From Rhizaria sp. SCN 62-66 (lineage: Eukaryota): DNA of 64,000 nt. Position numbers and translations under genes: made by a program. Shown in pieces: positions 18,746 through 52,874 of this stretch. The stretch lies in the NCBI GenBank assembly GCA_001724265.1, contig MEDY01000164.1, positions 62,001 to 126,000 on the forward strand, read 5' to 3'. A model generated the notes under the pieces. It saw nothing but the letters and a program-made list of their open reading frames with translations, had not been told where the DNA came from and ran no database searches. The stretch's first letter is position 1. Each line of letters opens with the position of its first letter.

Positions 18746-21694
18746 TTACTCATAGTCGTCAAAAGCTTTATCGAGTTGCTCAATGAACTCCTCGTCGGTG
18801 ATGTAATCCTGACTCCATGACGTCTTGGCCATCTCCAACACATACTTGATCCTAAGTAGCACCTGAAGTGGCTCTACTATGAATTGCCCCAACCACTCTT
18901 TCTGGAATGCGTTGAGGATTTTCTTGTTGCCTTCAGATGGCACCCATACACACATCGTGCGCACTAACCGTCCGAGCAACAACCCGACCTCTTTCTGCAC
19001 TTTCCACCCCGCCGCGGGCGCCAGCGCAGCGAGCGCCCGCAGCAGGCCCGCGCGCACAGCGAGTCCCAGGGTCTCCCAGCCGGGCACCATCCAGCTGCTC
19101 AGATCAACCGACAGCACGTTGTTGATGAATCGCACCGCCTGCGCGACGGTTTCGGTGTTGTCAGCGTCCAGGGCCGTGTCGTGCAACAGCGCGAAAACCA
19201 AGCCCAGTGGTGATTGAGACATATCCACGCGGGCCTGCTCCAGACTGGCCGGGATCGAGAACCTATTGGCAGCAAGCGCGGCGAGACTGTCGTGCCACTC
19301 TGCGCCCAAGCGGTTCTGGTCTGGCAGCGCGCCGCGGACAACGCCGACGAGGAACGGCGTCGCTGCAACGGCGCGCATGAGATGCAGCACGTCCCGCGCG
19401 ACGCGGTGGCCGGCGTTCCACACCGCGGGCGAGAGCAGCTGCAGCAGCGCGTTGCCGCCGCCGCGCCGCATGACGGCGTAGATCTCCTCGAGCGGCACTG
19501 TGGGTGAAATCAGTACCTAAGCAAGCTTTTTCCAGCCGTAGAAGCAGGTCCGCGAGAAGAACGCCGGCGGAATATACGGCACCAGCGGGAGCACTGCAAA
19601 TGCGCTGGCCGAGAAGACTTCGGCCATGAGCCACACAAAGGGCATCCGCGGCATGTCAGCTTCCGCTTTCAGCTCATACTTGGGATCCCACGTGTATCGT
19701 TTCTCGCGCCTGTGCGCCGCCACAGCCGCGGCAAACGCGCGTATGTTCTCTTCCGCCGTCTGCGCCGCAGCAGCGACCTTGGCGGCCACCGCAGATAGCA
19801 CGGACTCGTCGCGCACAGCCACGATCGCGCGGTCCGCGGCCGCCTTCCACGCCGCCACGGCCGAGGGGTGGCGCTCCCACAGCGCGGCGTCAAACGCGTT
19901 CTGGGGCAGCAACGCGTCGCTGCTGCGCGGCTTCTCGCAGGGCAGCGCAAGGCCGATATCAAGCATGTTGTTAAAGATAATCATGCAGACCTCTTTGCTC
20001 ATCCGGGCGGCAGCCGCGAGCCGTAGCAAGTCCGCGCTAGGCGCGGCAAGCGTGTCGTTATGCTTCTGCCTCTTTCCCTTTTCCGTAACATCAGCAGCAG
20101 CGGCAGCGGCAGCGAATGCGGTGGCCTGCAGCGTCGGGTCCCCGATCATCGCAGTGTAGGCAAGCGCCACGATGGGCGCCGCGGCCAGCGTGTGGGCGCA
20201 AATGCGGGCGGTCGCGTAGTGCCGCGTCACATACCCGGTCTCCGCCAGAAACACCTGGTAGAGCTGCAGCGGGGAAATCGAGGTTTTCTCGGAAACTATT
20301 GTCACTTTCTGAGCCAGCAACGCCAGCGCGCTGAGCATGTTCGTGTAGACGTTATCTTTGCAGGATAAAGTGCGCAATGCACGCTCAAACAGACGCAGTA
20401 GCTGCATTTCGATGCAACCGTCAAACGAAGTCGGCAAAAGCTCAACTGAGTCATCACAGAGGCGCACTTCAGTTTTTTCAGTTCTAGTTTCAGCAGTTCG
20501 AGTGCCGCTCTCAGTCGCGTTGGTTTTTATGCTATCACTTTGGCATTTTCCGTTGATCTCGTCTGCGCCACAGTCGCCACCATCGTCGTTATCATTGCCG
20601 ACCACGCCTTTGTTGTTGTTGCTCTCGTCATCATACTCGCTCGGTAGCTCGATCGGCACCGGGCTGTTCGCTGTCCACGCCGCAAGGCCCGCATAAGGGC
20701 TATACAGGAACGCGTACCTCACCGCACGCGCAAGCGATTCGATCATCAGCGGGTTAGTCAGCGGCGCTGTTAACAGCGCGGGCAGCAGAGCAGGCGTCAA
20801 TGCACGCGCGAGTCGGGCGCGATACCGGCGCGGGGCCGCCGCTTGCAGCCCGCACAGCGCAATAGCCGCCAGCGCGGCGTCGGTGCGCACAGGTGAATAG
20901 AGCAGCGGCACCAGCGCGGCGCGCGTGGCGGCCACGGCGGCGGGCGTGTCGTAGCAGTGCACGACGCGGCGGCGCAGGAAGCGCAGCACGCGCTTGACGA
21001 GAGCCAGATGCGTGATTTTCTCGGCATTAACGCGGACGGCGGTCGTTATCGCGCTGGTAAGCTCTTCGTCTTCGTTTGTGGTGCTGACGGGCGACGATAG
21101 GTCCTCGCGGTCACCAAGGTGCTCGCAGCACCATTCTTCGTTATTATCATTATCTTGATCACATTCACCGATTGCATCACCCTCACGGGACGCGTCACCC
21201 TCGTTGCCTTCGACGCCTTTGTCGCATTCATCAGCGTTATCGCCAACATTAGCGTCAGGATTAGTGTCAGTGTCTTCGTCAGCACGTTCAACGGCTTGTC
21301 CGCCTTCGTCCGCGCGGCGCTTGGCCAACCGGCCAAGAAGATCTGAAGAGCTATAGATGCGAAGGTGTGTCAGCAGGTCTGTGAAGGCAGCGAGCCGCAA
21401 CAACGCGGCGCGGCGCTCGGATGCGTTGCCCGACTGCAGTTTCGCGATTGGTGGGATTTCAGGGAAAGAGATATCGAGTGATGATAGCAATTGTTCCGAG
21501 GAGAGCGGATAGTCCTTACGATCATCATACAACTGATAATCGAGCATGCGAATGCCTCGAGCGAGTTCAGATATGAAGGAGCGGGCCGGAGAGGAGAGCT
21601 CCAGTCCAATCAGAAGCTTGACATCCCGAGTGATAGCGTGAGCAAGAACCAGGTCGTCAGCTACCGTGGCCATGCTTATGCTAGTGTTTGCCAT
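18746..21694 (-). CDS. Alpha-helical, ARM-repeat-like hypothetical protein, about 982 codons, with one in-frame TAG at 19519-19517 (recoded gene or pseudogene)
   Basis: ORFs 21763-19517 and 19498-18746 share one frame, separated only by TAG GTA CTG ATT TCA CCC ACA. First ATG is at 21694; ends TAA. Leu/Ala-rich helices; GLLRALAALAPAAGWKVQKEVGLLLGRL resembles an ARM repeat. Confidence 0.6.
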
Positions 21695-22122
21695 TGATAC
21701 ACAGCTTGGGATGTGTTTCTTTGAGGTTCTACGGCTTCGCAAAGTTTCGAGGACGAGGCACAAGACAAGACGAAGGACGTTTACTCACTATGAATTTTGT
21801 GATAGAAAGAAACAAACAATATTATAAATGTACAGCAGAAAGTAAAATAGGGGGTATAAATAAAATAATGTATCTGCTGTACATAATCATTGAATACAAT
21901 TGAAACATATTAATATCATTTAATGCGCAATTAACGTGATGTGGCGCCGGTTTCCCAGCCCAAACTATCGATTGTAGTGAGAAAAGTTAGGCCGCATCAC
22001 TGGAAAAGTGCCTCTCCAACTTCATCTTACGAAGTCACCGTGTGTTCACGCCCGCAATTACACCTCTGGTTTCATTATTTCTCACATGTATCGGTTTTTA
22101 ATTTCATTTTATTTATTTAGAC

Positions 22123-23242
22123 ATGGCATTACGCGCACTGACTCTCCAGGAGATCGATGACAAGATCGCTAAGGCATAGGTCGATAAAGCTAACCTTGTC
22201 AAGATTCGGGAGCTCTACTTGGCGACCTTTACGGAGGCTTTAAGGAACAAGGCTCCCACAGAGTTCATCACGAAGGAGCTCACGACGATCTCCGCGTCCA
22301 TGGCTGATGTGCAACAGAAGATCGAGAACCTTGAGAAGGAGAAGCTCAAGCTTCCTGCTCTTAATCCCACCACAGTAATCGCAGCTGAAGGTTCGTATTT
22401 GGGCTCCTGGCTCTTCTTATTGGTAACGAAATTTCGAGTAAATTTGATTATTTATCTCATATCCACCACACCACTCTTTTTCTCCTCCTTTTCTAGAGAT
22501 CTTTGAGCAGGCTCAGTATGCCTTGTTTCTCGTCAAGCATCCCAGCGCCAACATCGTGGACTACGACTGCGGGACTGGTTTTTTCGTGACAGAGGACTAC
22601 GCCGTGACTGCTAAGCACATCTTCCCCGAGGCGCTCAAGGGGCACTTTTTTATCAACTGCAAGTTCCTCATCAGCGGTCACGACCCTGTCCACTTCGACC
22701 TCGCAGTGCACCACATCTCGCCCGACCGTGACTTCGTCGTGCTGCGGCGTCCGACCGAGTTCGAGTTCGAAGCTAATGTGAGTCTGAAACGCATGCTCCT
22801 GGCACCGCGCCCGTTCCCCATCGGCAGTTCTAAACTCGGACAGTGCTACGTCCCTGCGTTCCACCACACCACTGATATCGCCTCTACTGGATTGCATTTG
22901 GAGGCCGCCGCCGTCACACGCCTCGCGGATGATGGCGCTTACTTCACCGCGGAGATGTATCCCGGCGATTCGGGGACCGCTGTCGTGCTCAACAATGGAT
23001 GCGCCATTGGTGTGTTCTTGGGTGTGCGCACCGGGACTCACACCCACTCCATCGAGACACCTGATAGTCCGTCCGAGCGCGTCCTCAAGTCTGGTGATCA
23101 GCAGGTTCTGGAAGAGCTGGACAACCTCTCGGTGGCATCGGTGGCGAACTCGGTGAACAAGAGCAAGCACAACTTCATGCTCTCCATGTCACACATCACC
23201 CCCTACCTCAGCACATCGTCGCTTGCACAACGACTTAAGTGA
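22123..23242 (+). CDS. Trypsin-like (PA clan) serine protease with an N-terminal helical domain, about 337 codons, in-frame TAG at 22177-22179. Exons 22123-22390 and 22497-23242
   Basis: CGTGFFV...AVTAKH (His), DRDFVVL (Asp) and YPGDSGTAV (Ser) form a catalytic triad. Phase-1 intron GTTCGT...TTCTAG joins ORF 22219 to ORF 22523. ATG 22123 is in frame with ORF 22219 across a TAG; stop is TGA. Confidence 0.8.
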
Positions 23243-23671
23243 TTTAAATGTTTTGCTCTGGTGCGCGCAGGTCTCCTATTCCTTTATTTCTTGGTTTTGT
23301 ATCTACCCTGCGCTTGACTTTTGCCAAAATGTTGGTTCGATCGTCGTACAGTAAGATTGGTTTCTTTATTTTAGTGGAACATATGTATGCTGTTGTGCAC
23401 GACAAATGGCATAAACGACTGTGAGACGTGTCTCGGTTAATATTTTTCATTTATCGGAGTTTAGCCAGGAGTTCACCAAGATGACGACACCAAAAACTGT
23501 CGTGTGGTTGGTCAAATTTCGTTAGGTTCTTCAAATGCTGTCCACTTCCTGGAGAGCTTCTTCAAGTTCCTAACAATAACATGTTTCGAAACGAATCAAG
23601 AATCGCGTTTTCCTTTCTGAGTTGTTTTGTATAAGACAGAATTTGCCGCTTTTTCTCTGATGTAGTGCATC

Positions 23672-24480: not shown

Positions 24481-27400
24481 TTAGACTTGAGCTCCAGTCT
24501 TGTCACCCCAGTCCAAGTCGATACTCAGCCCAGCCTCGCCACCTTCAAGCTCACCATCAGCTTCTTCCTTCGCCGCGCTGCTGCTCTTTTTGCTCTCTGC
24601 CGGGTTAGCCGGGTTACTTGTGAAGCTTGAGTCAAGGGCCATAATATCAGCCAATGCATCATCTAAACCACCGGTTTCATCAACAACAACGTCGTTCGAC
24701 TCTGGAACAGCATTAGGCTCCGCTGCAGCATCAGTCTCAGCCGCTACAGTCGGACCCTCCGTTTCAGCTTCAGCCTCAGGCTTCGCCTCATGCTTGGTCT
24801 CGTCATCCGCGGCCGCAGCCTCGGTCTCCGGCACAGTCTCGCTCTTGCTCTCAGCCTCAGCAGCAGTCGGGTCGTCAGCTGCAGCCGCATCCGTCGGCTT
24901 CGCTTTACTGCTCGCTTTACCACTGGCTTTCGGCGTTGCCGTTGAGCTGCTCTTGCCATGCCCAGCCGCGCTAGACGCAGATGCTGTGTCCTTAGTTTTG
25001 GGGCTCAGCGCCCCCAGCAGTGACGACATGCGGCGGCCGCCTTGTCCGAGCGCCGCCTGCTCACTCTTCGTATTGCTGCTGTTGCTGTTGCTGTTGCTGC
25101 TGCTAAGGTTGGCGTTAATGCCGCCAACGCTACCGCGGGCGGGCGAGATCAAAACACCCCTAGACTTGCTCTCGCTGGTGGTAGATGTGTGTGCGTCAGA
25201 GGCAGCGCAAGCGCTGCTGTTGTCCTTCGCTTGAGCAAAGGAAAGTCCAATCGGCGTTCCGTACTCGTGTCCACTGCACACAAAAAGATCAAAATACAAA
25301 ATTAATCATAGAAATGTGAGCAATTATAACATCAAAACCATGAACAAAAAATAACATGAATGAATGACCAAGAAAACAATAAGTGCATACGATATAGAGA
25401 ATATTATGTCATCAGCAAGCTGCGTTATGAAAGTATGCGATAACGTACCGAGGGAGGACGACGACGGGGAGCTCGTCCCTGGGCAACCGCGGCAGCCCGT
25501 ACTGCTGCCGCGTCCGCGCCACCACAAGCGTGAACTGCGACTGCGCCTGCTGCAACAGCTTCGCGCGCCGCGCCGCCGCAGCAGCAGCAGCAGCCTTGGC
25601 CGCGGCGGCCGACGCAGTGGCAGGGCTGCCCCCGGCGGCCGCGGCGGCGGCGGCGGTCGCGGCAGCGCCAGTCAACATTGTCGCCGCGGCGGTCGTCAAC
25701 ATAGGCACCACGGACCCACCGCCGCCGCTGCCAGCGCCGGCGGCGGCGCCAGGGTCTGATTTGGGCAGCGCGACCGTGGCGGCGACCGCGAGCGCGACCT
25801 TGGAGGGCTTGAGGGTGGCATTCCGGCTCACCATCGCCGCGCCAGCGCTGCTGTTGGTCGCGGCGACGGCCGCGGCGGTGGCGTCACCCGTGCCCGAGCC
25901 CGCCGCGCCCGCTCTGCCGCCGCCGGCGCCGGTGCCAGCCGGAGCCGCGGCGGCGGCGGCGGCGTCGGCGGCGGCGGCGAGCGCTGGGTTGAGTGCGGGG
26001 CCGAACACACCGTCGGTGTGGAAGATGGCGAGCTCTTCGGGAGTCACGACGAGGTCGGGGATGCCCGAGATGAACATCGAGCCAGACAGCGCGCTCGCAG
26101 TCGTGCTGAACGCGCCGCCGCTGCCGCTGCCGCTGCCGCTGCTGCCGACGCCGGCGCTGCCGCTGCTGCTGTGGCCGCTGGTCGGACCGGAGAAGAAGCC
26201 GCTGCTGCTGCCCGCAGCGTGGACGACGCGGGCGCCGCTCTCATTACCATTCGCACCAGGCTGCTGCTGCTGTTGTTGCTGCTGTTGCTGTTGCAATGCG
26301 GTGTTGCCGTTCATGAGGGAGCGGCGGCGGTTGAGACTGTCACTGGCGCCGCCACTGCCGGCGTTTCCGCCAGTGCTCGAGTAGGCGTTCGCGGTCGCAT
26401 TGTTGCTGTTTGAGTCAGCGTCATTGATGCCGGTCGCCGCGGCCACAGCTGACACCGGCAGCGGCGGCGGTGTGTAGGCGTTGCTGCCCCGCAGCACACG
26501 GTCGATGATGCCGGACACGGCGCTCAGCGCAGTCAAACTCGCAGCAGCCGACCCTGCCCGAGCACCACTACTAGTAGCGCCAGCGCCAGCGGTCAACTTG
26601 TTGCTGTTGCCGTCAGTGCTAGCCGAGGCGGGGTTGAGCAACGGCAGACCGCAGCCGATCGTGACGTGCTTGAGCCAGCCGGATACGGTCTCCACAGCGC
26701 TGGGGTCGAAGTTCAGCGTCGGCACCACAAAGCACGAGTTGTGCAGGGACCGGAAAAATGGCTCCACAGCGACGAGGCGGGACCCGTCGAGGAGATCGGT
26801 GGGGCACGCCAGCGCGCGCGCAATGGTGGCCGTGATTGTTGACAGCGGCGCGAGCGGGTCAGCGCGCATCCAGCGGTCGCGGATGTCGTGCAGCCTGACC
26901 ACCTGCGCTGTGCTGCCGCTAGGGTTGTTGATATTACCATTGTTGTTGTTGTTGTTGTATACGGCGAGGGAGCTGGAGCTCGAGGATGGGTTGAGCGAGC
27001 TCGCGCTGCTGCTTGAGTTCATGTCGCCGTTACTGGCCACGCTGTTGCTCGGAGCTGGACGGGCAAACACCATAACTTGCTCTTTCAGCGCGGTTGTAAA
27101 GGACTTGATCTCGAACGCGTGCTGCGAGCGCACAGTGGCCACGAACTCGGTCTCGCAGTTGCCACGGGTTTCCTTCAACAGCAGAGAGTAGTCGCTGGCG
27201 GCGGCGGGGATGGCCGCAAACGTCAGATCTAAGGCGGCGATGAGTGCGTTAAACGCGGTCTCCGTCTTTTGAGGGAAAAACAGACGCAGAGCGTACAGCA
27301 GGAGACCACGCGGGAGACGTTTGGCTGCGTTGCTAAGGAAACCGCCAGTGCTTGACGATGCGGGGCCACTTGCAGAGGAAGCGTCCTTGGAGTCATCCGC

Positions 27401-30400
27401 GTTGGCAGCAGTAGCGGCAGCGGCAGTGTCAGCGTTGCTGGCGCCGCTTGCGTTGTTGCGGGGAGAGCTGACGTCAGCATCCTTGCTGCTGCCGTTGTTG
27501 TTGGCACGGGGCGTGGTAAGCGGGGTCTCGGTGCTGGAGCCGAAGCTGCCGTTACCGCCGTCACCGCTAGCGTTGACAAAGACTGAGCTGTCCGGCAGAG
27601 TTGCGACCACCTGCTTCCGGAGGATGTCAAGGTTCACAAAGAGCAAGTGCAACTGATGCAACATCGCAGCCTAAAGAGTAATTTATCAAAACAGAAAGTC
27701 ATAATGGGAAAAAATGTGAGAGAAAGACGACACAAAAACTGTTGGTGAACATGTATGTCATTCAGGTTTAAAAATAACATTTAAAACTATGCGTTTTGTT
27801 ACGTTTAAAGGTGAAACACGTACCTGGTTGTAGTAGAGCTCCTCTTGGTATTGGCCCGAAAGCACCTTAAGGAAGACATCGCAGTCGCTAAAGGCCTGGT
27901 AGCGGTACGTGGCATCGATCAAATTGTAGCTATAATCAGCCACAATTGACGGCAGCCCGAACTTACCCCTGAGATACATCCCGAAGTAGTCAGCGAAGTT
28001 GAGGTCCAAGTACCCGCGGCGCGTGTCGTGGAGCATCTTGGACCTCCAGACGTCGTAGATAAACTGCTCACAGTCGCGGCGCGCGATGACACGGTGGCGC
28101 ACCTTGCCCGTGATGCGCAGGAACTCGGGAATCGGCGCGTCACGCGTGCCCTGGCCGAGCCCCTGCAGCGTCTTGCTAGCGCCCGCCAGGCGGAATACGA
28201 GCTCAGTGCGCTTCTCTTGCGGCAGCAGGGTGTGGAGGCCCAGGATCGGCGCAGACACAGCGACATCGCCGCCGACGCTGCCGTTGCTGGCCTCGCCGTC
28301 GCCCATGGAGTTGTTCGCGTTCAGCATCGCCAGCGCGTTCGCGGTGCCGTTGCCGGTGCCGCTGCCCATGTTGTTGTTGCCGGCAGAGCGCTGCTGCTGG
28401 CGACTTGTGTTGCCGCCGCCGCCGCCGCCGGCCGTGGGGTTCATCATCAAAGTCAAGCCGCCCGCCTTGAGCGCCTGCACCTCGGATTTGAGCGCGGCGA
28501 CCGTGGCTTTGGTGGCCCTCTGCACGTCAACCGAGAGCACGAGCTGCGCAGAGAGACTGGCCTCATGGGCAGACGCGGCGCGAAGACTGTTGAGCAGCGA
28601 CGTGACGTGAAACTGCGACGACCGGATCTCCTTGACACCGCCGCCAACGACATTACTTGCAGCGACGGTGGAGCTGTTCGTGCGCACAATTGACTGATGG
28701 TGACGGTGGCCGAGATCGCTGCCAGCCACAGTCGTGTTGCCGCTGTCAGCGCCTCTGCCGCCGGAGTGGCCGCCGCCATTGTCGTCCTGTTCTGATGCAA
28801 GCACCAGCGGGGGCACGGTCGCGGGCGCCGCGTAGGACGCCAGTGTGGCGGCCGCGTCGACGTCGCGGTACTCGACGTACAGCGCGCCCCAATCGGGCCG
28901 CGGCGTGAAGGGCCGCAACAACTCCTCGCGTGAGACGCGGAGCCGGGCGATCTCAGCGCGCGCGTCAGCTAGCTCGGCCACCACGGCGGCCTTCTCTTTC
29001 GAGACGCGGCGGCACGAGGCGAGGCCGACAGCGTGGACCTTCTGGGCCGCGAGGAGCTTGTTCGTCAGCGCGGTGCCGCGGGCGACCTCCAGGTGCAGAG
29101 CCTGTGGGAGGAAGCAAGTGAAACAACAAATCAAAAATAAAGGATATAACATGAGTTAGCTCAAAGGAGAAGGTGGTTCCTCACATAGATATAAAAAATT
29201 TCAATTCAAATTAAAGGACAAAAAGTCTAAATCTTCCTATTTTGATTATTTATAAGACGTACTTCGCGGAGCTCGTCGACCTGGTGGAGCATCTCAGCGC
29301 GGCTCGACAGCTTCTCGGTCCGCTCATTGGCGACCTTGAGCTGCTCCTTGAGCTCGCTCTCGTTCACACAGGCGACGATATTCGCCTCACGCGTCGCCGT
29401 GAGCTCGGTGGTCAGCGCTGCGATCTCGGCCTCCAGCTCCTTCACACGCTCCTGCGCCGCCGCCAGGTGCGCGCTGTGGCCGCGCTCGAGCGACCGGGCC
29501 GCCAGCGCGGCACGCTCGGCCGCGGCGGCGGCGGCGGCGCGCGCGTTGGACGCGGTTGCGGCCGCGGAGGACGCTGCGGTGGCGGCATTAGTCTGCTGCG
29601 CCAGAGCCGTGGTCAGAGAGAAGATGAGGTTGGCCTGCTCCAGAACAACGGCGCGCGCGCGTGCGTAGAGCTCGATGTACGAGTAGCAGTCTTGTTGCGG
29701 GGCCGCAGCGTGGCCGTGACCGTGGGCAGCAGAGGTACCGCCGCGGCCGCCGTGAGTACCGCCGGCGTTGGCTTTGCTCTGGATGTTGTTGAGCACCGAG
29801 TTGGGGTCTGGCCGCTGGTGGGACGAGAAGAGCGACGAACGGATGGCAGCGGCGGCCGACTTAAGCGAGTCCGATGCATCGGGGAAGATGGCTTCAAGAT
29901 CTTGCAGCAGGCTGAGCGCCGGGGTGACCGACGAAGTGACTGAGTCCGCCGCCGCAGCGGAGACAGCTGGGCCCAGCGTCGTCGCGGTGTTCGCGATCGC
30001 GGTCAAATCCACAGTCAAATGCACGCCGTTGCCGGAGATCACAACCGGTTCCGTCAAACTCGCACCGGTTTTGCTCGACGTAGCGCTCGAGCTCATGGTG
30101 TTGGAGCTGGAGATGATGTGCGCGGCCGCGGCGGCGTTGCGCGCGACAGCCGCGGGGCCAAACGCAATCTCCTCCGCAGCGGGCACTGCAGGCGGCACAA
30201 GCGCGGCCCTGGCGTGGGCGTCGGTCGTCCGCTGCGCGAATGAGGCGAGGGCGGAGACGAGCGCGGAGCGGAAGGCGGGCGAGCCGGGGTCGCTGGCCGC
30301 GGCGGGCAGCGAGCGCGCGACCGGGGGCGCGGGGCGCGCAAATAACGGGGAGCCGGCGCCGCGCATCGGGTACGCGGCCGCCGCGGCGGTCGCAGCAATG

Positions 30401-30591
30401 ATGGCAGCCGCAGCGGGGGAGGAGGCCGACGCAGAGCTAGAGCCAGCACTGGTGCTGGAACTGGCGCTGCCGATAGCGATTGTGTCGACGGAGTGGAAGG
30501 AGTGGGCCAGCACGGGCTTGCGGAGGGGACCACCGGTGCCCGTAATAGGCGGAAAGGCGCTGGGAACGTCGCCTGCGGGAGTGCGCTTCAT
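24481..30591 (-). CDS. TSNAXIP1: Translin-associated factor X-interacting protein 1-like (ciliary coiled-coil protein), about 1873 aa. Exons 30591-29263, 29101-27824, 27670-25449, 25273-24481
   Basis: Coiled coil followed by FTPRPDW, GLG...IPEFLRITGKVRHRVIARRDCEQFIYDVW, FADYFGMYLRGKFG...YSYNL...FLKVLSG and LRLFFPQK. Three GTACGT...YAG introns join four ORFs in frame; stop is TAA. Confidence 0.8.
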
Positions 30592-31417: not shown

Positions 31418-31496
<79 letters not shown>

Positions 31497-37400: not shown

Positions 37401-40400
37401 GATGCACCGCGCGGTGTTGTTCCTGCGCTACCGTGCCGTGACCCGCAAGCGCGGTGCGCGCCTCGACGCCGACGCTGACGCCGCCGCAGCGACGCTGAGC
37501 CTGCGTCGCGGCGTCGCTGCGCTGCGCGAGAACGTCACGCGCACCGACGCGGAGCGAGAGATATGGGGCCGCGCGCAGGAGCACCGCGACAGCGCACGCA
37601 AGACCCGCATGTTCCGCGGCTGGCTCCAGTACGCGCGCCACGCACGCGTGCTTGCCAAGTCTGGCGGCGCCGCCGAGGCCGCGGCCGCGAGCAGCGTGCT
37701 GCGTGAGTATTGGAACAAGTGGCGCCAGGCCGCCGCCTTTGCGGCGTACACGCGCGACGCCGCGCTGTACATGCTGCGCTACCGCGCGCAGCGCGCCGTG
37801 TTGGCGCTGAGCATCAACGTGCGCCGCAACCAGACCGTGCGCAACCTGCAGCTTTGGCGGCGTGACGAACAGCTTAAGTCCGCCGTCACTGCGCTGGCTG
37901 ACAACGTGCGCCGGCAGCACTGGGAGCGCGCCGCCGTCACCACTGCCGACGCCGCCGCGGCCGCGGCCCGCTCGCGCGACGCGTTCTGCTCCTGGCGCAA
38001 CGCGGCCGCGATCAACCGCTACCGCCGCGCCGCGATCACGCCGGCGTTCCAGCAGTGGCGCGACCAGGCCGGCCGCCGCGCGCGGTTGCAGGGGCTGTCT
38101 GCGGTTGTTCAACTCACGGTCACGCGTCCACATGCAATGCGCAAGGCCATGCGCGCGCTGCGCGTTGTTCTCGCGCGGTCGATGGCCAAGCGCCGCGAGA
38201 TGGCTGACGCCGAGGCGGCCTTACTTTGGTACCGCCGCCGCAACGCGCTGGTGCAGCTGCGCACGGCGCTGGCGGCCAAGGAGCGCGCGCAGTCGACCAA
38301 GTACCGCATGTACTTGCTCTCAGGACGGCTGAACTTCGAGTCGCTGCAGCGCTCGGCGTGGGAATCACTGCGCAACGCGTACTGGGCGCGTGCTGCTGAC
38401 CGCAAGTCCCGCGCGTTCCTGCTGCAGCACCTGGCGGCCCCCGCGGTTGCAGCGCTGCGTGCGCTGGTGTTTAACCGCAGTGACTGCGAGCGGCGGCGCG
38501 CGGCGCAGGCGCAGTGGTTGCGTTGCCAGCGCCAGCGCCGCGCACTGCAGCGCTGGCGCGAGGCTGTGGCGGCCGGGAAACAACGCGAGGCCACCGCCGT
38601 CCAAGCCGCTCGTGCGCTTGCACTGCGCCGCGCAGTGCTCGCGCTGAGGCGCTCGATCTGGCTGCGCGACAAGAGGCGCGTCGGCGCAAGCGTCGCGGAG
38701 ACCGCGGAGACCATGGGGCTGTTGCGCAGTGCGTGGCGCACGTGGCGCGCGCGGCTTAACTTAACGCGCGACCTTGAGCACGCGCGCACGGTCACTGCGC
38801 ACAACCACCAGCAGCGCACGTTGGCAGGCGTCTTGTCGCATTGGCGCGAGCTTACTCAGTCCAAGAGACTAGAGGCAGAGCTTGATGCCAAGGCGTGTGC
38901 TTTCCATTTGCTGTCGGTTGTCCGCAACTGGCGCGCTCAAACGCGCGAACGCACACTCGCAGCCCTCACCAAGGTACGGCTGTTGACTGCGGCCGCGGAC
39001 CTAAGGGTCGTGGCCCTCACGCGGTCCGCGTTTGTGCGCTGGCGCAAGGCGTACACGGCTAAACTTCTCCACGCGCGCGCGCTCACAGTCGCCCCCAAGA
39101 TCCGTGACGCGTATCTGCTGAAGCAAGCGTGGCAGCACTGGAAGGACGCGACTGCGGCAAAGCTGCAACAGCAACTCTTTGAGCTGCAAGAACAGCAACA
39201 GCTCGAACAGCAAGAGCGCGAGCGTGAGCTGTGGCTGCAGCAAAGGGAAGCAGCTGAAGTTGAGGGTGCATTCGGTGACCGTGAACGCGAGGCGGCTTTC
39301 ATTAAGAGCGTGCAAGGCCGCGTTCTTACAGTCGTTTCGGAACCGCACCCGCACGCGCCCCCTGCCACACAACGCGGCTTTACTTCGAACAACAGCGGCA
39401 GCAGTGATAACGAAAGTGGCGACGACGACTCTGGTGTCGTAGGCTTTGCTCCCTACCGTAGTCGCAGTGGCCGTGAGCGTGAGCGCAATGCTCGGGCCGT
39501 TGCGTTATCCCTGGGCACTGGCAACCGCCGCGATGTTAGTAGTGGCAGTGACCGTGCGGCGTTACTTGTTGCGGACCCCGATGGAGGCATGCGGCCTAAC
39601 TTCGAGGGCGCGGGCACGAACATTGACGCAGAGGCGGGCTGGGACACTGAGGACGAGGAAGCGCCGGGCACCAGGCAGACTAGCCTCAACCAGGACGGCA
39701 GCAATAACAGCTTCGATCTCAACATCACGCTCACACCTCGCCGTCGCCACCGTGACGCTGGCAGTGTCTCCGTCCACGTCCACGCCCAAACGAACGACGG
39801 CGAGGATGGCACTGCACTCAGTGTGGATTCGCGGGCACTGGTTCCCGCGTTTCCTGCTCTCCGCCTCTTTCGCAAGCGCGCCACTGCGTACGCACCGCTG
39901 CCCGCGAGCACGATTTTTCGGTCCTGGCTCTCCTGGGCGCGCGTGCGGTCAGCGCACCGTGCCGCTGCTACTCTGCAGTCAGTGGCTGTGAAACGCGCTG
40001 CGTTCCGGCGCTGGCGCGGTGTTGTCGTTGCGGAGGCGGAGGCGGAAGTGCGGACGCTGCGGATGGCGGCCGCGGCCGCCCTAGCGACGCAGAGCAATGG
40101 CGCGATTTGCACGGCGACTGTCCCTGCTTCTGCGGGTGCTGTCTCTACCGCTCTGCGTCGTAACTCGGTCACTGGCTTGCCGGTCTCCGTCGACGTCACA
40201 AGCTACAACAGCGTTAACCGGGAGGACGACGCTCGGTATGCGCGCCTTCTCGATCCTGACGCCCACAGCAAGTCTGCTTTCAGTGGCGGCGTCGCAGCGC
40301 AAGCGGGGGCTGCGGCGGCGGAGGCTGCTGTTACGGGGTATGACGAGAGCGAGAAGGCGATTGGCGAGGCCCTGAGACAGCTAAGTACTCCGAAGAAGAG

Positions 40401-41868
40401 GCGGTCTTGCCGTCAAGGTGACAATGTGACTGTAAACACTCACAATAACTCGCATACGTTATCATCGTCGTCGTCATCAGAGTCGTCATCGTTGTCGTCT
40501 GAGCTGTCTTTGCTGTCACCATTGCCGACGACGTCGATCTCAGGAATGTCATCACCGGAGTCTATGTCACCGCTCTCACAGCTCCACTCACACTTGCAGT
40601 CGCACGTGCAATCGCGCTCGCAGCCGCAGTCAAGCTCGCAGCCACAGTCAGGGCGTTCACAGCCGCAGCTCCGGCCGCACAGTGACTCCGCCAACAGTAG
40701 AGGGGTGAGTCGTGCCGCGTTCGACTTGATTGAAGAGCACAATGATGAGAACGACGACGATGCTGACTGCTCTTTCACATTTGCGGGCCATACTCGCATC
40801 ATCCGCACAAGTGACCGTGGGCGCCGCAGTGGCCGTGACCGTGAGCAGTCCATGCGTGACCGCGATTGTCAGTGTGAGCAGAGTGACTGTGAGCAATGCG
40901 AGAACTCTGACTTTGAGCGGATGCTTTATAGAGCAGGGGTTGAGGCGCATGCTCTGCTTGTGAAGCGCAAGGTGTTCACTGCGTGGCTGGGAGCCTTTAT
41001 CAACAAATTCCACGCCAACAGTCACAACCTGAACAGATACGTAAAGGACGACGACGACGACGATGGCGACGATGCTCACGATAGTACGAACAGTGTCTTA
41101 GATACATCGATCGACGAGGACTCGTCTCACTTGAAGTATAGCCGCTACGTGCCCTCAAAATTAAGCCCCCAAGGAGATGACCTTGTTTCTCCGTTCTCGT
41201 CGCCAGCTGCCGCTCAGAGTCACAGATCGCAAACTGCTAAGACTAATCACAACAACGGCGGCCACACGCCGAGTGGTTTCACCTTAGCGTCTCCAGTGTC
41301 TGCGCACTTGCTCGCAACGCCGGACGCTTTAGCTGTGAACAGTAGCACGGACAACTCCTTCGTCAACCAGCAGCATGGCGCTCTGCCTGTGAACATGAAC
41401 ACCAGTCTCGACTCGACCGCTGATCACCGCACCGGTCGTTACAACGCTGCGAACGCCAATGACGCCGATGTGGATGGTTATCACTACAACAACAGCTTCA
41501 AAGAAGAGGAAGATGAAGACGGTGGCCGTGAGCAGGGACAGATGAGCGCCAAGAAGACCTCTCCTGGGCGGTACAGCGTTCGCTTCACTCACGATGACAG
41601 CCCAGCGACTGGCGCCGACGGCGGGAACAACGATAACGAACACAACAACAACGAGGATGACGCTGTTGTTGCTAGCTCGACGTGGATTAGCCCGAGCATC
41701 CCTCTGACTCAAATTCCTGCCCCCACGGCCACGGCCACGGCCACGGCCACGGCCACGGCCACGAGCAACACGAGTCACAGTCCTGGCTCTAGCGCTGTGA
41801 CTGCAGCTGCTGGCAGTGTGTTTCTGACTGGTCAGCCCCTAAAGATCACTCTTCGCAAAAAGACATAA
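31037..41868 (+). CDS. SFI1: Sfi1-like centrin-binding repeat protein, about 3610 aa if a 1-nt deletion in the poly-Asn tract at ~31496 is repaired
   Basis: Many Arg/Ala-rich helical repeats ending [AF]xxW[RK] (AFTVWRR, AFKKWRK, VFTNWRK, AFQQWRD, AFVRWRK) over about 34800-40020. ORF 31037 runs into (AAC)n and the frame of ORF 31558 runs out of it. No intron seen; stop is TAA. Confidence 0.75.
31418..31521 (+). repeat. Microsatellite (AAC)26-AC-(AAC)8 encoding poly-Asn
   Basis: Directly visible; one unit at 31496-31497 lacks an A. Confidence 0.97.
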
Positions 41869-42330: not shown

Positions 42331-44569
42331 ATGAGTTCGTCTTCTCAGGTGGCGCCTCCCACCGCCAAGCCCGTCGCCGTCTCTTCTGACGACCCGACAC
42401 TCACGCTCAGCAACCAGCGCGTGAAAGAAGGTACGCTTAAACGGATAAACGCACTATAGCATACACATTTGCGCTATCTATGCTGTTGTATCGCCTGACT
42501 CTACTCTACACGAGTCAACTTTCTCTCAAATCCCCCCACATTCTTTACCTTGCTCCTTTTTCAACAAACACGCCACCCTTGCTCCACCCCAGCGCGTGAG
42601 GCGGTCAAGAATGGCACCGACAAGGTCTACCGCATCTACACCGACGGTATCTTTGACATTTTCCACCTTGGTACGTTCTCTAACCTCTGGCCGCGTCTCG
42701 AACGCTCTAACTAATCACGAAACCATCCCCGTCTCTCATAACGCATACACTCTCACGTTAGCTGTCTTATTTCCTTCATTATGCATACTATGACTACAGG
42801 GCATATGAACGTGCTTAAGCAAGCCAAACACGCGCTCGGTGATCCTTCGCGCGTTCACCTCATCGCAGGTATCTGCTCCGACGCCGACACCAACCGCGTA
42901 CGTCCCTCGACACCACTCACTAAAACAATAATATCTCACTCAAATAGCAACATGTATTACTAGAAGCGCCACGGTGAATTTAATACTCGCATTTGTATCT
43001 GTATCGAAATTGTAACCCAACTCTCATGTAATATCATCGTATACTCACTGATATCATGCTTTTGCTTTGCTTTTGCCTCGCTTGTTTGCACACCGCTTGT
43101 TTGCGCGCGCGCGCAGTTCAAGGGTCCGCCAGTGATGGACGAGCAGACCCGCGCCCAGTCCGTCGCCCAGTGCAAGTGGGTCGACTCCGTCATCTGCCCC
43201 GCGCCCTGGATCGTCGACGACAAATTTCTCGAAGCCAACGGCATCGACTTTCTGGCCCACGACGCTGCGCCCTACGCCAGCGCGGACGGCACCGATTGTT
43301 ATGCACTCGTCAAGTCTAAGGGGATGTTTCTGGCCACTGAGAGGACGGATGGCATTTCGACGAGCGATATCATCGTCCAAATCGTGCGCGACTGTACGTA
43401 TACGTGCTTTCTTGACAACAAAGCAATGTTTAGATGTCATCTTTACCTTTTGACGTTGATCATGTGTTTTGCAAGCATACTTGCTCTTGATGTGTTTGTT
43501 ACTTGTTCAGTTTGCTCACATTTGCTCGCCACGTCCTTTTTTTTCCCTGTCTAACTTCTCCATGTTGTGATCCCTTTCACGGTTGTTTGCGACTTTAGAC
43601 GACAAGTACATCGACCGCAATCTCTCCCGCGGCTTCGACCGTTCCAGCCTTAACGTCGGCCGCACGTGGGAAATCCGCGCCGTTGCGCACGAAAAGGGCC
43701 GCAAAGTTGACGCATCCCTCAGCGCCGTCTCGGCGGCCAAGTCAGAGCTGGCCCAGACGTGGCACGCCTTCTTGGACGAGTTTCACCGCGTCAAAGTGAA
43801 GGATCTCGTCACGGGGCAGGTGAAGCGTGTCGTGCGCGGGGTCCGCCGCCGCGCCGGGAACGGGGGCCGCGGCCATAGTAACGCGGCGGGGGCGGGCAGT
43901 GCGAGCGATGCGGAGAGTAACGCGAGTGCCAGTGTGGGCGTGTGCACTGATAACGAGGGCGAGTGGAGTGATAGCGCAAGCAGCATCACGGACACCGAGC
44001 ATAACAACAGCAGCAACAACAACAACACGCAGTCTAAGAATAGTAGTAACTGTGGCATTGTGTCTGCGTGCGATGCTACCACTGCCACTGCGAATGCGAA
44101 GCCCGAGTCCGAGTCTGAGGCTGACGCTGACGCTGATGCTGAGTCAAAGAGCGCGGCTGATGCGGCCACGAGCTCGAATGCTCTGCCTAAGACGAGCTCT
44201 GATGATAACATCGGCATTCGCGCCCGCAACGCCCCCAACACCAGCCAGAGCCAGAGCGCTATCTCTAACTCCAACAGCAACAACAACAACAACAGCATCA
44301 GTAATAGAACCCCCGCTGGCACAGGCGCCAAGCCTGCCGTCACATTCACGGACGTGACGGATTATGCCGCGTCTGCTGCGGGCGCCAACGACGGCGACAG
44401 TGACGAAGACAGCGCCAGGTACAGCACGACTCTGGGTAAACAGCTCGCTGATGTCGCCAAGCACTCCGGTCGGCTCTGCTGGGCGGTGACCATCTTCCTC
44501 GTCTCGCTGCTCTCGTACCTCAACATTCTCTCGTATATCAGCAAGTGTCGCCAGACTAAGCGCTTTTAA
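42331..44569 (+). CDS. PCYT1: Choline-phosphate cytidylyltransferase (CCT), about 507 aa. Exons 42331-42430, 42593-42670, 42800-42897, 43117-43393, 43599-44569
   Basis: Spliced product reads YRIYTDGIFDIFHLGH (HxGH), KGPPVM, CKWVDSVICPAPW, IDFLAHD and [31 protein letters not shown]. All four introns preserve the frame; stop is TAA. Confidence 0.93.
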
Positions 44570-45035: not shown

Positions 45036-48000
45036 TTAGAGACTCGAGTCGTCCTTGCCCTTGGCGGTGGCCGCCGCCGTGGCCGCAGCCGCCGCGGCGG
45101 TGGCGAGCGCGTCCCTGCCGACCGCTGAGCCCGGCGTGCGCACGGTGAGGTCGGTGCCGAAGCGCGACTGCGGCATCAGCGCCGAGTCGTCGACCGCCAC
45201 GGCGCCGCCCGCGGACGGCGCTGACTGCGCTGACGGCGCAGTTGGCGCAGTCGGCGCGGTGGAGTCGGGAGCAGCGGTGCTGGTGGCGGCCACCTTGGCG
45301 TTGGCCGAGCGAGCGCTCCCGAACGCGGACGGATTGCTGCTCTGCGCGGGTGGGCTGCCCGAGGATAGCCACGACGCGGAGGCGCCGAACACGGGCCCCG
45401 TGACGACGCCGCTTGTGCTCGCGCCAGCACCTGCGAGAGGGCTGGCACTGGCGGCAGCGTCAGGGCCAGTGACTGGGCCAGTGGATGCGCCAGTGTTCGC
45501 GATCGTGTCAGAGGTGCCGGGGACCGAGGTCGTACGGAACAGCTGTCTCTGCGCCGCCGTCACTCTCTCCACCGCGCCGGTACTCGTGTTGAAGCTCACG
45601 CTGCTACTCGTGTTGCTGCTGTTGTTGCTGCTGTTGTTGTTGTTGTTGTTGTTCGCCGGTGTTGACGTGCTGGAGAAAGCGGCCAGCGCGGCGACGGCGG
45701 CCGCAGCCTTGGGAGTGCCGCTGCTGGCCAGTGACCGCGCCGCGCGCGCACCGGCGGCGGCGTCGGCCACGGCGGCCTCGGCGGCGCGGCGCTGCGAGTG
45801 CGCGGCGGCGGCCATGGTCTCGGCCACAGCGTCGAGCAGCGGCAGGTTGAGCTGGCACAGACGCCAGAGCAGGTTCCACAGCAGCGTCGGGTGGCGGTGG
45901 CGGAACGACGGCGACAGCAGGTACGCCGCCGCAGACGGGTCCGAGAACACCGACAAAATGTTCGCGGCGGAGTGCGATTGTGACTGTGAGTGCGTGGCGT
46001 CGCCGCTGCTGAGCTGGCGTGCGCGGAGGACGCGCGCCAGCTCGAGCAGCAGCACGCGCGGCGGCAGACAGGGCACCGTCGCCACAGGCCGCGGCGCGCG
46101 CGGCTGTGACCGAGCCGGCCGGCGCAGCGCGGACGCGGGGACCAGGCCGCTCACACTGGTAGTCGCAGGAGCGGTGGCGCCGACAACAGGGGACGCGCCG
46201 CCAGCAGCCGCGGTGCCACTGCTGGTGTGGGCGTTTGTGTTGCTGGATACAGGGCCCGAGAACGACACGCTCAGCGGCAGCGGCGGCAGCGCCGCGCCAG
46301 CACCCGCGCTGTTCACGCCCGCGACTGCGTTTGCGGCAGCCGAGGGCGTGGGCGTGGGCGCGGGCGCGGGGTCGAGATTGAGCGCGCAGTCGTAGTCAGC
46401 GAAGGGCGAGTGCAACAGCGCCAGCGTCGCGGGCGGCAGCGTGCGCGCGGGCTCCACCGAGACCGTGAGCAGCGGCACGAACGCGCAGCCGCACGACGGA
46501 CACGCCAGCGCAGCCGCGGAAAGGTACGGCTGCGCCACAGCCAGCGGGCAGTCGCCAGCGAGCGCGACGGCCTCCTCAGCCTCGGCGTCGGCGTCGGCCG
46601 CGGCCTCAGCCTCCGCCGCAGCGGCCTCCGCCTCGGTCTGACTGTGACTGTGCCCGCGACCGTGGCTGTGGCGGGCCCGGCGGCGGCGCGCGGCGGCGGC
46701 CCGGGCGGCGTGCCTGCGCGCGCGCTGTGCCTTGTAAAGCGTCGTCGCGGCGTCGATGTGCCAGAGCAGGTTCAGCTCGGTCGCCAAACTGCAGCCGCAG
46801 CGCAGGGCCGCGCCCGAGCCGTCCGCGTCGGCCTCGTCGCCGTCGTCACCGTCGTCGCCGTCGTCGTCCCTGGAGGCGACAGAAGCGCGGGCGCTGGCGT
46901 TGGTGCTGGCGTTGGGGCGTGAGTCGGAATCGGGGAGTGACAGCGCGGGGGGCAGCGGTGGCAGCTGCGGCATCAAAGTTAAGCCGCCGCCGCCGACACC
47001 CGCGCCACCACCGGTGTTGTGGATGGCCGTGGCGGTCATGTCAACGGCTGCAGCACCGGTGTCGCCGCCGACCGCGACGGCCGCGATCGCCAGAGCGGCG
47101 GCCGACGCGCGGGGCCTCTGCTTCTCGCTCGCGCTCACTCTCGCCGAGCCAGCGCCTGTGCCAGTGCTGATGGTCGACGCGGCGTGTCCGTTGCGCGCGG
47201 CGACTGCGGCGGCTGCGCGCGCGAGAGTGGCCGCCGGCAACGCGCAGCGCCGGCAGCCGCACACCTTCTCGCCCGCACTGACCAGACTGCTGCTACTCGA
47301 GCTCGCGTGCGCAGTGCTTGCGGTGGTGTTAGTGCTGGTGTATACTAGCGTGTCGCCGCGGACGCCCTTGAGCGCGCGCGCGGCGGCCGCGGTGGGCTGA
47401 CAGCGTGCGGTGACGGCGACGGTGAGGCCGCGGAAGAGCGCCTCGAAGCGCGCCACAGCGTCGTCGTGCTGCTCGGCCTGCGCGCGCGACGTCGAGAGCG
47501 ACAACAGCACGGCCGCAGGCAGCGCCGCGTCGCCCGCGTCCGCGGGAGAGGCGGGGTACGCGGCCTCGATCGCGGCCTCGACGTCGCTCTCGCTGCCGGT
47601 ATCGCCGGGCGCGGTGGTGCTGTAGCGAGTGAGCGAGTCGTCGTAGAAGGCGTCAGCCCGCTCGGTCACGACGGTGTCCGTCGATGGGCTTGCAACAGCA
47701 CCCGCTGCACCCGCACCGGCGCTGGCACTGGCGGCAGCGCCGCCGGAGCTCGAGGTCGCGCTCGAGGTGGTGTGGCTGCTCGCGAGAGACTGCGGCGTCA
47801 AAGGCGTCGCCAGCCGGTCGTTGCCGCTGCTGGCGCAGCCCAAGCTGTCGCTGCTGCCGTTGCCGTTGACGCGCAAGTGGCGCTGGGACTGCTCCTGCGA
47901 CGACGGCGGCGACTGCAACTGCATTTGCATCTGCGAGTGCGCGCGCGTGAGCGGCCGCGGCAGCGGCGCGCGCGCGGCCTGCCACACGGCGACGACCGCG

Positions 48001-51000
48001 AGCGCGAGGTTCGCGAGCACTGCGAGGCGCACCAGCTCGGGCCGTTCAAGCGAAGCCACAACCTGTTGAACGGCGGCGCTAGCGCTGGAGGAGCCGCCGA
48101 CGATAACGCTGACGCTGACGCCGGTGGCGCCGACGCTGGCGGAGGCAGGGGCGGGCAAGACGAAGTGCGACACGGGCGCCGCTGACATCAGCATAGCGCC
48201 GCTCGCGGGCGAGTTAATCGCGGCGGTGGTGGGGGCGGCGGTGAGGCTTGGCGTCGGCGCCGCGGTTGCCGACGTCGCCGTGGCAGAGGGGCGACGGCTG
48301 AAGAAGTCCGACAGCTTGCGCTTCAGCAGCCCCGGCGTCGACACCGGCGCAGCCGCGGCAGCGTTGGCGTTGGCGGGGGGCTGTGCGGGGGACGACGGCA
48401 CAGAGCCGCGCGCGCGCGCAGACGCAGAGGCAGAGGCGGGCGCTGCCGCGGTGAGCGATGGCGAGTGCAAGTGCAACGGCGGCGGCGACGGCGACGCGGC
48501 CGCCTTGGCCGGAGCAAACCCAGCCGGTGAGCCCGCGACAGCGTTCGCGGCCGCAGCGGCGTTGCTCGGTGTGGTCGGCGCGCTGCGGTACGCGTTCGAG
48601 TTGGACTGCGCGTGCGCGCGCGACGCCAGCAGCGCCGCGGCGGCCGCGAGGGGCGCGTACGGCAGCGCGCGCAGGCGGCCGGTGGGCCACAGCAGCGCGG
48701 GCACGGAGACGGAGCCAGAGCCAGACATCGAGACTAAGTCCAAGCTTGAACTCGAGCTCACATTGGCGCTAGAGCCAAGCGTAAAGGTAGAGCTCGCGGT
48801 GTTGTTGTTGTTGTTGTTTGTGGCAAGGTCGGCGGCTGAAGCGGTCAGCAGCGACAGATACAGCGGCACCAGCGGCAGGCTCTCGGGCGTCGCTGTGAGC
48901 GCGAGCCGGTCGGCGACGCCCACCGCGGGGGGCTCCCATAGTGAGGAGCCGGGGGACGCAGCAGACCGCGCGGCGACACCAGGCACAGTCAGCGGCAAGA
49001 ACTCGACGTTACCCGCGCTCCTGTCACCGCTGTCAGCGTTTGTCTCCTGCGCATCAGCGGCAGCGGCAGCGGTCGCAGTCTCGGTCGAGGTCGCGACCTC
49101 GACCGCCGCGGCGGCGACGACGTGAGGCGGCGGCAGCGGTTGCGCGCGCGCCTCCCAAGCCACGCGCGCGGCGAGGGACGCAAACCACTCGGGGTAGCCT
49201 GGCGCGGAATCGGCCTCGGCGGCCGCGGCCGCGGCGGCCAGCGCGGCGCCGGTCACCGCGACGGGGCTGGCGCCGACAAAGCTCGCGGCGGGCTGGAGAG
49301 AGCCGGTCGCACCGCTGATGTTGAGTGTTATGCCGCTGATGTTCGCGATGCTGTTGCTGTTGCTGTTGCTGTTGTTGTTGGGCCAGCCGTCCGCGCGCGA
49401 GCTAGGCGGCGCGACGACGACGCGCGCCTGCGGCACGACCGCAGACCCAGCGGCAGCGCTTGCACTAGAGCTGGAAGCGGTCGGGGCGAGCGGCGACGAG
49501 GACGACGAGGAGGACGAGAGCGAGAGGGTGTAGGCCTGTTGACGCGCCTAACCCCGGTCGGCGCTGTTGGCGGCGCTGCTGCTACCGCCGACGACGCTGC
49601 CGCTGCTGGTGCGCATCGGAGACAGCGCGCTCAGGGCGGCGCCGCTCGCGTTCGCAGTGGCGCCGCTGTTGTTGAACATCGGCGGCGGCGGGGGCGGGGC
49701 GCGGCGCGCACCGAGTCCGGGGCTAGCGCCAGGGCTCAGCATCGGAGAGCCGACGAAGCTGCCGCGCGCGGTGCCGGAGCTCTGCAGCGGCGAGCCGACG
49801 AAGCTCCCGCGCGCCGCGCCTGCACCGGTGTTCGCGCCAGCGGTAGCGCCGGCGGTGTTCGCGGAGACGGGGCTGCTGAAACTGGGCCGCGCGCTGCCGT
49901 TGGCGCTGGAGAGCGCGGCGAAGCCCGGGGAGCCGGGCGCGGCGTTCATGCTCGACCTGCGGAGCGCGGCGGCCGCGGCGGCGGCCGCGGCCGCGGGGGC
50001 CAGAGCCGCGATCGCCGCGACGGCGGCGGACGGTGGCGGCGCGGCGCCGGCGTGCGGCGGCGGCGGCGGCGGCGGGGCAGAGCCAGAGCCTGAACTCGCA
50101 GTGATGGCATGGGTAGTAGAGGGGGAGGCGGCGACAGGGGGCGGCGGCGGGGGCACGCGGGGCGGGGGCGAGGCCGGCGTCGAGGCCGTCGCACTAGCGC
50201 CTGCGCTGAGGTTGCCGCTGCTGCTATTGCTGCTGCTAGAACCGCTCGAGCTGGTGCTTGCGGCGGCCGATGTGGGCCTGTTGCGCGAAGCCCGACCCGT
50301 GGCGCCACCACCCTTGCTGCGGAGCGCGGAGCGGCCCGCGCCAGAGAGCCGGCTGCGGTGCTCCCCGCCGAGCCCGCCGCCGCCCAGCAGCGCCGCGGCG
50401 GCGGCCGTGTCGACGCCCGAGGCCACGGAGAACCCGCCGCCCGCGCCGCCGGCGCCGCCGAGGCCCAGCCCCGCCGCGGCCGAGCCGGGGTTGAACGACA
50501 GCGAGAATCTACCGAGCCCGTGCCCGCCGCCGCCGCTGCTGCTGCTGGAGGTGTAGCTGTAGCCCGAGCGGCCGCCGCGGGCAGAGTCGGCGCCGGCTCC
50601 ATAGGGCGGCGACAGCAGCAGCGTCGCGCCCGCGCCCGCCGCAGCGTTGGCGCTGAACGTGTCGAGCTGGGACGACGACGCCGAGCCTGAGCCGATGTTG
50701 TTGGCGCGCAGGGCCGAGCGCTCCGGCAGGAAGACGTTGGCGCCCGAGGCGAGTCTGACCGAAACGACCTCGTCAGCGCGCGCGACGCCGAAGGGCGTAA
50801 AGACGCACGGCAGCGGCGGGTGCGGCGACAGCAGGGCCAGCGACAGCGACGCGTCTGGCGGCGCGAGCGCGCGCGGGGCCGGGAACGCGGCGCCCGAGGG
50901 CGACACGGCGGCGGGCAGCGCGGGTGCCAACGGCGCAGGCCGGCACAGCCAGTCGCGGTACAGCGGGTTGAGCGCGTGCCAGCCGTCGGCGGGCGCAGAG

Positions 51001-52842: not shown

Positions 52843-52874
<32 letters not shown>

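Follow-up and report, generated by a model that had tools for sequence, protein, structure and literature searches.

Does UAG still end translation in the organism from which contig MEDY01000164.1 was assembled? The question is raised by a 64-kb stretch of this contig (here called the window), in which three genes, encoding an ARM-like protein (site 1), a trypsin-like protease (site 2) and a DENND4-like protein (site 3), are each crossed by a single in-frame TAG. An earlier note, made from the letters alone, had placed these codons in the contexts KKLA*VLISP, KIAKA*VDKANL and ADRG*ARQQAY (where the asterisk is the TAG), each followed by a G, and had proposed a variant code, readthrough or editing. 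All three codons are located as described, and the G is present after each. Among the proposed explanations a UAG that is not an efficient stop now leads, whereas a genome-wide change of the code is not shown by 3 TAGs in 16,575 codons. Here, we favour the view that, throughout this organism, UAG is either decoded or leaky, and give it a probability of about 0.5.

Seen directly are a TAG that recurs in independent assemblies (site 1), coding-like flanks in the same frame, neither an intron nor a spacer between them, and a conserved tail of the ARM-like protein. From this we infer that translation may continue past the TAG. In the proposed model, which would extend to the whole genome, UAG is not an effective terminator, and ribosomes would move on past it and add an amino acid, either by means of a transfer RNA (tRNA) that reads UAG or through a general leakiness of termination at this codon. 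Both genes, ARM-like with 981 codons and DENND4-like with about 4,880, would then be single open reading frames (ORFs) ending in UAA. Because TAG is avoided at gene ends and so rare as a sense codon, any reassignment would be young, weakly used or still ambiguous. Our best guess for the inserted residue would be glutamine (Gln), from precedent and from CAG as a frequent codon one step away from TAG, a choice against leucine (Leu) that is not decided.

The two robust TAGs (19517-19519 and 49548-49550; sites 1 and 3) stand out in a scan of every stop codon of the window with at least 80 open codons on each side, in which the long ORFs of the window served to train a codon model, and both flanks were scored with it. 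The highest coding scores on both flanks belong to the TAG at 19519, followed by that at 49550, and the scan of the whole window returned no TAA or TGA with two coding-like flanks in a sense frame. The earlier note had found no in-frame TAA or TGA in its gene models. When TAG is read as sense, ORFs of 755 and 256 codons are fused into one of 1013 codons at 18746-21784 (-), and ORFs of 2583 and 1503 codons into one of 4088 codons at 45036-57299 (-), each with a single TAG; both are large genes present in a single copy. It is these long, coding-like ORFs running on in the same frame past sites 1 and 3, and not the codon tally, that give the observation its weight; site 2 (22177-22179) is weak.

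Other stop codons were discarded. A TGA that scored in the scan (61204) is intronic, in the aminotransferase gene, and three TAGs (27671-27673, 29224-29226 and 30601-30603) belong to introns or the 5' leader of the gene at 25412-30591. Five further TAG hits of the scan are artefacts: they are read antisense to the DENND4-like gene, in a frame in which a sense CTA appears as TAG. This antisense frame is broken by TAG only (junctions on the plus strand at 46393, 51721, 53743, 56266 and 56968), is otherwise open for hundreds of codons and has a coding-like score, a trap that may mimic in-frame TAGs in GC-rich genomes.

At site 1, the GC content by codon position is 0.63/0.48/0.67 upstream of the TAG and 0.67/0.41/0.77 downstream of it, and the GC content within 100 nt of the TAG is 0.64, unlike the introns and spacers of the window. 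Four introns could be delimited (106-168 nt, GC 0.30-0.38, donors GTACGT or GTTCGT, acceptors YAG), and the two intergenic spacers that were measured have a GC content of 0.33 and 0.37 and a length of at least 178 nt. An intron at site 1 is excluded by the GC-rich surroundings and by the lack of a full-consensus donor: a 6/6 donor is absent from all 529 in-frame GT/GC-AG candidates spanning the TAG, of which the eight best-ranked, like the eight best-ranked at site 3, have a GC content of 0.60-0.73. A 19-nt piece after the TAG (GTACTG...CACAG) was considered as a tiny intron and rejected, because the TAG would stay exonic and the length is not a multiple of three. This piece is retained in a contig from an RNA library (X5 record 19), which covers 19082-19540 with 0 gaps and is thus unspliced across site 1, ending 21 nt beyond the TAG.

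Nor is the site 1 TAG a base error, judging by independent contigs. In a cross-sample comparison over 18700-23300, at least part of this segment was held by seven of eight rows of metagenome runs, from four studies (one row is possibly the source of the window), and X6 record 26, a 151-nt contig of a separate study that spans the TAG (19442-19592), matches the window with 0 differences. In addition, an ORF stopping at this TAG is present as P0001 (5 contigs) and P0006 (1 contig), both of 725 amino acids and 724/725 identical. The earlier note had kept base errors in reserve for all sites; at site 1 they are excluded.

The 256 residues after the TAG are 60% identical to those of a relative, represented by P0016 (238 amino acids, 5 contigs) and P0018 (242 amino acids, 3 contigs), with 131 invariant columns and long invariant blocks such as LLSPAVWNAGHRVA and GLAVRAGLLRALAALAPAA. 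Because of this degree of identity the post-TAG part is under selection, and so translated, and a recent nonsense mutation followed by a decaying tail is unlikely at this site. The similarity continues upstream of a methionine (Met) that is shared with the relative (IYAVM in one, MYAAM in the other) and is found 16 codons past the TAG, with 45 GC-rich nucleotides and no AT-rich spacer between them. Since the relative's part is likewise called as a separate ORF, the break at site 1 is probably old. Such an old break fits readthrough of a conserved UAG and fits equally well programmed readthrough, two cistrons or an intron in the relative.

Neither side of the TAG in the ARM-like gene matches a Pfam family, a PDB profile search returned a best match of only E 0.43, and an AlphaFold2 model of 497 residues across the site has a mean predicted local distance difference test (pLDDT) score of 43.5 and is unusable. 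The nearest neighbours of the post-TAG part (P0015) are fragments of meiotic helical-repeat proteins of the MEI1/PRD1 type, proteins of 1,000-1,300 amino acids (score 0.91, 135 shared features); this likeness, drawn from language-model features and without Pfam support, may serve as a lead only. Some variation is seen along the gene. Upstream of the TAG, at 19688-19782, X3 and X4 each have one contig in which 90 other letters stand in for 93 nt, next to a flank with 19 differences in 117 nt; the segment thus has a divergent allele or a paralogue. In X4, the 5' end of the gene and its promoter (20992-21829) have 32 differences and 4 gaps in 838 nt, and a contig over 18371-19061 has 0 differences in the post-TAG part (18746-19061), both of its differences being in the 178-nt spacer; the gene has thus diverged unevenly along its length. 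The RNA run X5 has no cover at 21408-24077, and nothing is concluded from this gap.

Site 3 is placed in Ala/Ser-rich low complexity, some 1,700 residues after the last domain that can be recognised in the DENND4-like protein, whose tail matches no Pfam family. The GC content within 100 nt of this TAG is 0.72, and an intron is excluded, with none of 495 in-frame GT/GC-AG candidates having a 6/6 donor. A separate downstream gene was also rejected: no ATG follows for 273 codons, and the coding pattern is kept over these codons (GC by position 0.63/0.65/0.81). In an exact look-up in the protein collection, 0 of the 4 ATG-started DENND4-like ORFs were present.

In the case of site 2, the N-terminus upstream of the TAG, MALRALTLQEIDDKIAK, is common to P0002-P0004 (84-101 amino acids, 75-81% identical), so that the upstream ATG is not that of a stray upstream ORF, and a distant homologue (P0009) likewise has a coiled coil ahead of its protease domain. 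This is also the only site with a TAG column that can be aligned, sites 1 and 3 having no homologue across the TAG, and the column does not hold one amino acid: the paralogues P0002-P0004 have K, Q and K, and in X3 and X4 a contig with a variant sequence has GTC AAG (K) where the window has GCA TAG. The TAG is included in X6 record 29 (22016-22193, 0 differences), which reaches only 14 nt beyond it, and the ORF called after the TAG (P0005) is on 3 contigs. Protease exon 1 is part of a family with several copies: within a single run, as many as 6 contigs cover it. When exon 1 was used as an alignment query against metagenome contigs, it returned 1 locus of 1,092 bp (L001), which is about 93% identical to the window, to the same degree in promoter, exon 1 and intron start. 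By our own reading of this alignment about 15 of the 17 differences in exon 1 change an amino acid, and exon 1 apparently bears no sign of purifying selection. Because exon 1 is multi-copy and apparently unconstrained, the K/Q column says little on the meaning of the TAG.

L001 holds a fourth in-frame TAG (974-976), this one followed by a C, and adds a case in favour of readthrough. Only one frame of exon 2 of L001 is open, and this frame, which holds the TAG, is also the one dictated by the phase of exon 1; this exon 2 has no recognisable Pfam family. A cassette composed of promoter, exon 1 and intron start (window 22020-22500; L001 1-63 and 431-800) is joined to unrelated second exons in the two loci, and L001 begins with a second, truncated copy of the promoter and the first 13 nt of the coding sequence. 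The protease cassette thus resembles a multi-copy family that recombines or is mobile.

The choice of stop codons is of a piece with an avoided UAG. As the earlier note had stated, none of nine complete genes ends in TAG, although its count of 7 TAA and 2 TGA becomes 5 TAA and 4 TGA in our models, in which two or three of the ends are uncertain. If TAG normally ends 20-30% of genes, the chance of 0/9 is P 0.13-0.04. Two nuclear codes in which UAG alone has been reassigned are those of the rhizarian exLh (UAG as Leu) and Iotanema spirale (UAG as Gln), and in exLh 384 in-frame UAGs occur in 71 genes at conserved Leu positions, eRF1 was examined, and the genes end in 56 UAA, 15 UGA and 0 UAG (PMC5304391). 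The window resembles both in that UAG is the only interrupting codon and genes end in UAA or UGA. In contrast to exLh, its TAGs are only 3 in 16,575 codons and none is at a position conserved across distant homologues. Among phyllopharyngean ciliates, UAG is read as Leu in TARA metagenome-assembled genomes (MAGs) and as Gln in Hartmannula sinica and Trochilia petrani, with internal UAG in 78-91% of genes and at 6.5-32% of the amino acid's codons, and with tRNA(CUA) genes in two of the MAGs (PMC11687900). The likeness would be to a code in which UAG alone is reassigned, with UAA as the main stop, and which was recognised from metagenome-derived genomes; unlike these ciliates, the window is GC-rich with long genes and 100-170-nt introns, which does not look ciliate-like, and TAG is far rarer.

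This rarity is among the points that weigh against an organism-wide decoding of UAG. The three TAGs are in 3 of about 12 gene models, and the NOL9-like and SFI1-like genes, about 7,500 codons, have none in frame; the earlier note had said as much, and their ORFs (2473 + 1552 and 3482 amino acids) are indeed free of TAG. Next to 160 CAA and 441 CAG in the same set, TAG would make up 0.5% of Gln codons if it is read as Gln, and its usage is 10-60 times below that of documented UAG-sense lineages. About 60% of random nonsense mutations arising from this codon usage would give TAG, and three TAGs of three have a probability of about 0.22 under a nonsense-allele null. Within the 64-kb window 0 tRNA genes were found, and 0 Rfam matches, including none to a spliced-leader RNA, and eRF1 is not among its genes. 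The RNA-library contig across site 1 has 10 differences at places that are not listed, so that the TAG letter in RNA is not readable, and the cross-sample comparison took in sites 1 and 2. For the protease, an in-frame ATG follows 41 codons downstream of the TAG, the roughly 7% differences between the window and L001 in exon 1 are much like those of the flanks, and the site 2 copy could be a dead or shortened paralogue. At site 1, the relative's homologue is a stand-alone ORF starting at the shared Met or 4 codons before it, which fits a conserved stop or two cistrons at least as well as an ordinary sense codon. We regard a narrower form of the organism-wide reading as quite doubtful: the reassignment of UAG would be in its beginnings or still ambiguous, with UAG already removed from gene ends but tolerated in frame about once per 5,000 codons, and the ARM-like UAG would have been kept since the split from the 60%-identical relative, serving as stop and as sense and giving a short and a long isoform.

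Under the standard code, the TAGs might be true premature stops, a truncating allele being tolerated in the DENND4-like tail, the ARM-like gene being split or truncated, and the protease being a pseudogene or starting at a downstream Met. We consider this unlikely, if the strongest of the alternatives. It is in keeping with the share of TAG among random nonsense mutations, with the extreme rarity of TAG in frame (3/16,575), with the low complexity at site 3 about 1,700 residues beyond the last domain, with the multi-copy protease, its unconstrained exon 1 and its downstream in-frame ATG, and with the database gene calls, all of which end at the TAG. Within 64 kb, fixed stops in as many as two large genes out of about ten would nevertheless be very improbable in a free-living organism, and the ARM-like tail, kept at 60% identity, beyond a break that is seen in the relative too and is thus old, has not decayed. 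The paralogues of site 2 are intact. No uninterrupted form was found for site 1, where the single match among proteins of 556-1771 amino acids was the window's own cluster, six contigs carry the stop and the site is identical in a sample of another study. In our judgement, one organism-level property covers all sites, whereas premature stops need three ad hoc stories. Next in rank, and likewise unlikely, are gene-specific arrangements under the standard code, in which UAG readthrough would be programmed to give isoforms, or the ARM-like transcript would carry two cistrons, the second starting at the conserved Met. That the relative's homologue is also a stand-alone ORF of 238-242 amino acids from about the same Met suggests that the break is conserved (one of its records has the source flag FL=1, which we take to mean full length), and sites 1 and 2 have the context GCN-TAG-GTN in common. 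Retroviral gag-pol programmed readthrough uses UAG-G followed by a pseudoknot, and the likeness to this system includes the single UAG-G, the long functional downstream ORF and the break apparently present in a relative as well. When the 120 nt from each of the four TAGs were folded and compared with 200 shuffles, however, no structure above the shuffles was seen (z -0.78, -0.76, -0.09 and +0.53), and, unlike in the gag-pol type, the TAG of L001 is followed by C. A G at position +4 is a strong-termination context, and it is this base that follows all three TAGs of the window. Two cistrons are further disfavoured by the 45 nt between TAG and Met, which are no AT-rich spacer of the kind seen elsewhere in the window (at least 178 nt, GC 0.33-0.37), by similarity to the relative that reaches upstream of the Met and by the lack of a match to a spliced-leader RNA family, while at site 3 there is no ATG for 273 codons.

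The two remaining explanations have far less to offer. Editing of mRNA from A to I, by which UAG would become UIG and be read as Trp, is very improbable. Stop-loss A-to-I editing of UAG is known from the sexual stage of Sordariomycete fungi, in which UAG is the preferred editable triplet, and the window shares with this system an in-frame UAG in the DNA of genes that may encode full-length proteins, with UAG as every interrupting codon. In contrast, nothing marks the host as a fungus of that group, as can be judged from stretches of 70-75% GC, giant low-complexity genes and DENN-family genes; no hairpin signal is found around the sites, and the site 2 paralogues have K or Q and not W. Sequencing or assembly errors would be conceivable in a contig produced by metagenome assembly, and are scarcely credible given that site 1 is identical in X6 record 26 and ends an ORF on 6 contigs, and that the site 2 TAG is inside X6 record 29, with 0 differences, its P0005 call being on 3 contigs. 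A literature search for a wastewater eukaryote with in-frame UAG gave no such organism among the matches listed.

Table 1. Coordinates of the in-frame TAGs and of the gene models in the window.
Feature	Position	Strand	Details
Site 1, in-frame TAG	19517-19519	-	context GCT TAG GTA
Residues around the site 1 TAG			...WKKLA, then TAG, then VLISPTVPLEEIYAVMR
ARM-like gene, upstream of TAG	19520-21694	-	725 codons from ATG at 21694
ARM-like gene, downstream of TAG	18746-19516	-	256 codons; TAA end at 18746-18748
Site 2, in-frame TAG	22177-22179	+	codon 19, exon 1 of trypsin-like protease gene
Protease exon 1	22123-22390	+	coiled-coil N-terminus; followed by 106-nt intron 22391-22496
Protease exon 2	22497-23242	+	Trypsin_2 domain (Pfam PF13365, E 4e-08); TGA end; relatives P0008-P0010
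Site 3, in-frame TAG	49548-49550	-	context GGT TAG GCG; low-complexity tail
DENND4-like exon 1 ORF	57419-59798	-	uDENN 7e-09, N-terminal DENN 3.4e-06 (Pfam)
DENND4-like intron	57251-57418	-	168 nt, GC 0.30
DENND4-like exon 2, upstream of TAG	49551-57250	-	C-terminal DENN 4e-27, dDENN 1.6e-08; Ala/Ser-rich tail
DENND4-like exon 2, downstream of TAG	45036-49547	-	1503 codons; TAA end at 45036-45038
NOL9-like gene	2757-14505	+	CLP1_P and NOL9_C domains; ORFs of 2473 + 1552 amino acids, about 4,000 codons
NOL9-like gene end	14503-14505	+	TGA
Gene 16180-18567	16180-18567	+	TAA end at 18565-18567
Three-exon gene	25412-30591	-	TGA end at 25412-25414
SFI1-like gene	31420-41868	+	ORF of 3,482 amino acids
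SFI1-like gene end	41866-41868	+	TAA
Cytidylyltransferase gene		+	TAA end at 44567-44569; approximate model
Aminotransferase gene			intron holds TGA at 61204

The window itself is eukaryotic nuclear DNA with a GC content of 53-75% and very long, intron-poor genes on both strands (Table 1). The samples in which 18700-23300 was found are from a bioreactor, wastewater, activated sludge and a fuel cell, and the host is an uncultured, GC-rich, intron-poor protist that recurs in sludge-type metagenomes. Three of its genes far exceed the usual size of their orthologues (DENND4-like, about 4,880 codons; NOL9-like, about 4,000; SFI1-like, 3,482), swollen by low complexity rich in Ala, Ser, Gly and Asn with a GC content of up to 75%, and the SFI1-like ORF has a run of about 25 Gln at its start. 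Comparison of the aminotransferase exon with the Atlas proteins gave no taxonomic clue. A query with the ARM-like protein against metagenome contigs returned 38 pattern matches and 0 relatives, and genome contigs and viral contigs gave 0 matches each.

If the favoured reading is confirmed, an unrelated, GC-rich lineage would be added to the organisms with UAG-only codes, one that is unusual for its very low usage of UAG. This low usage could then show a reassignment during, or shortly after, the loss of UAG as a terminator, and would bear on the debate, set out in PMC11687900, over whether codes change by the 'ambiguous intermediate' or by the 'unassigned codon' route. Every database gene call for the host splits these genes at the TAG, so that, again if confirmed, metagenome bins of this kind would yield truncated proteins.

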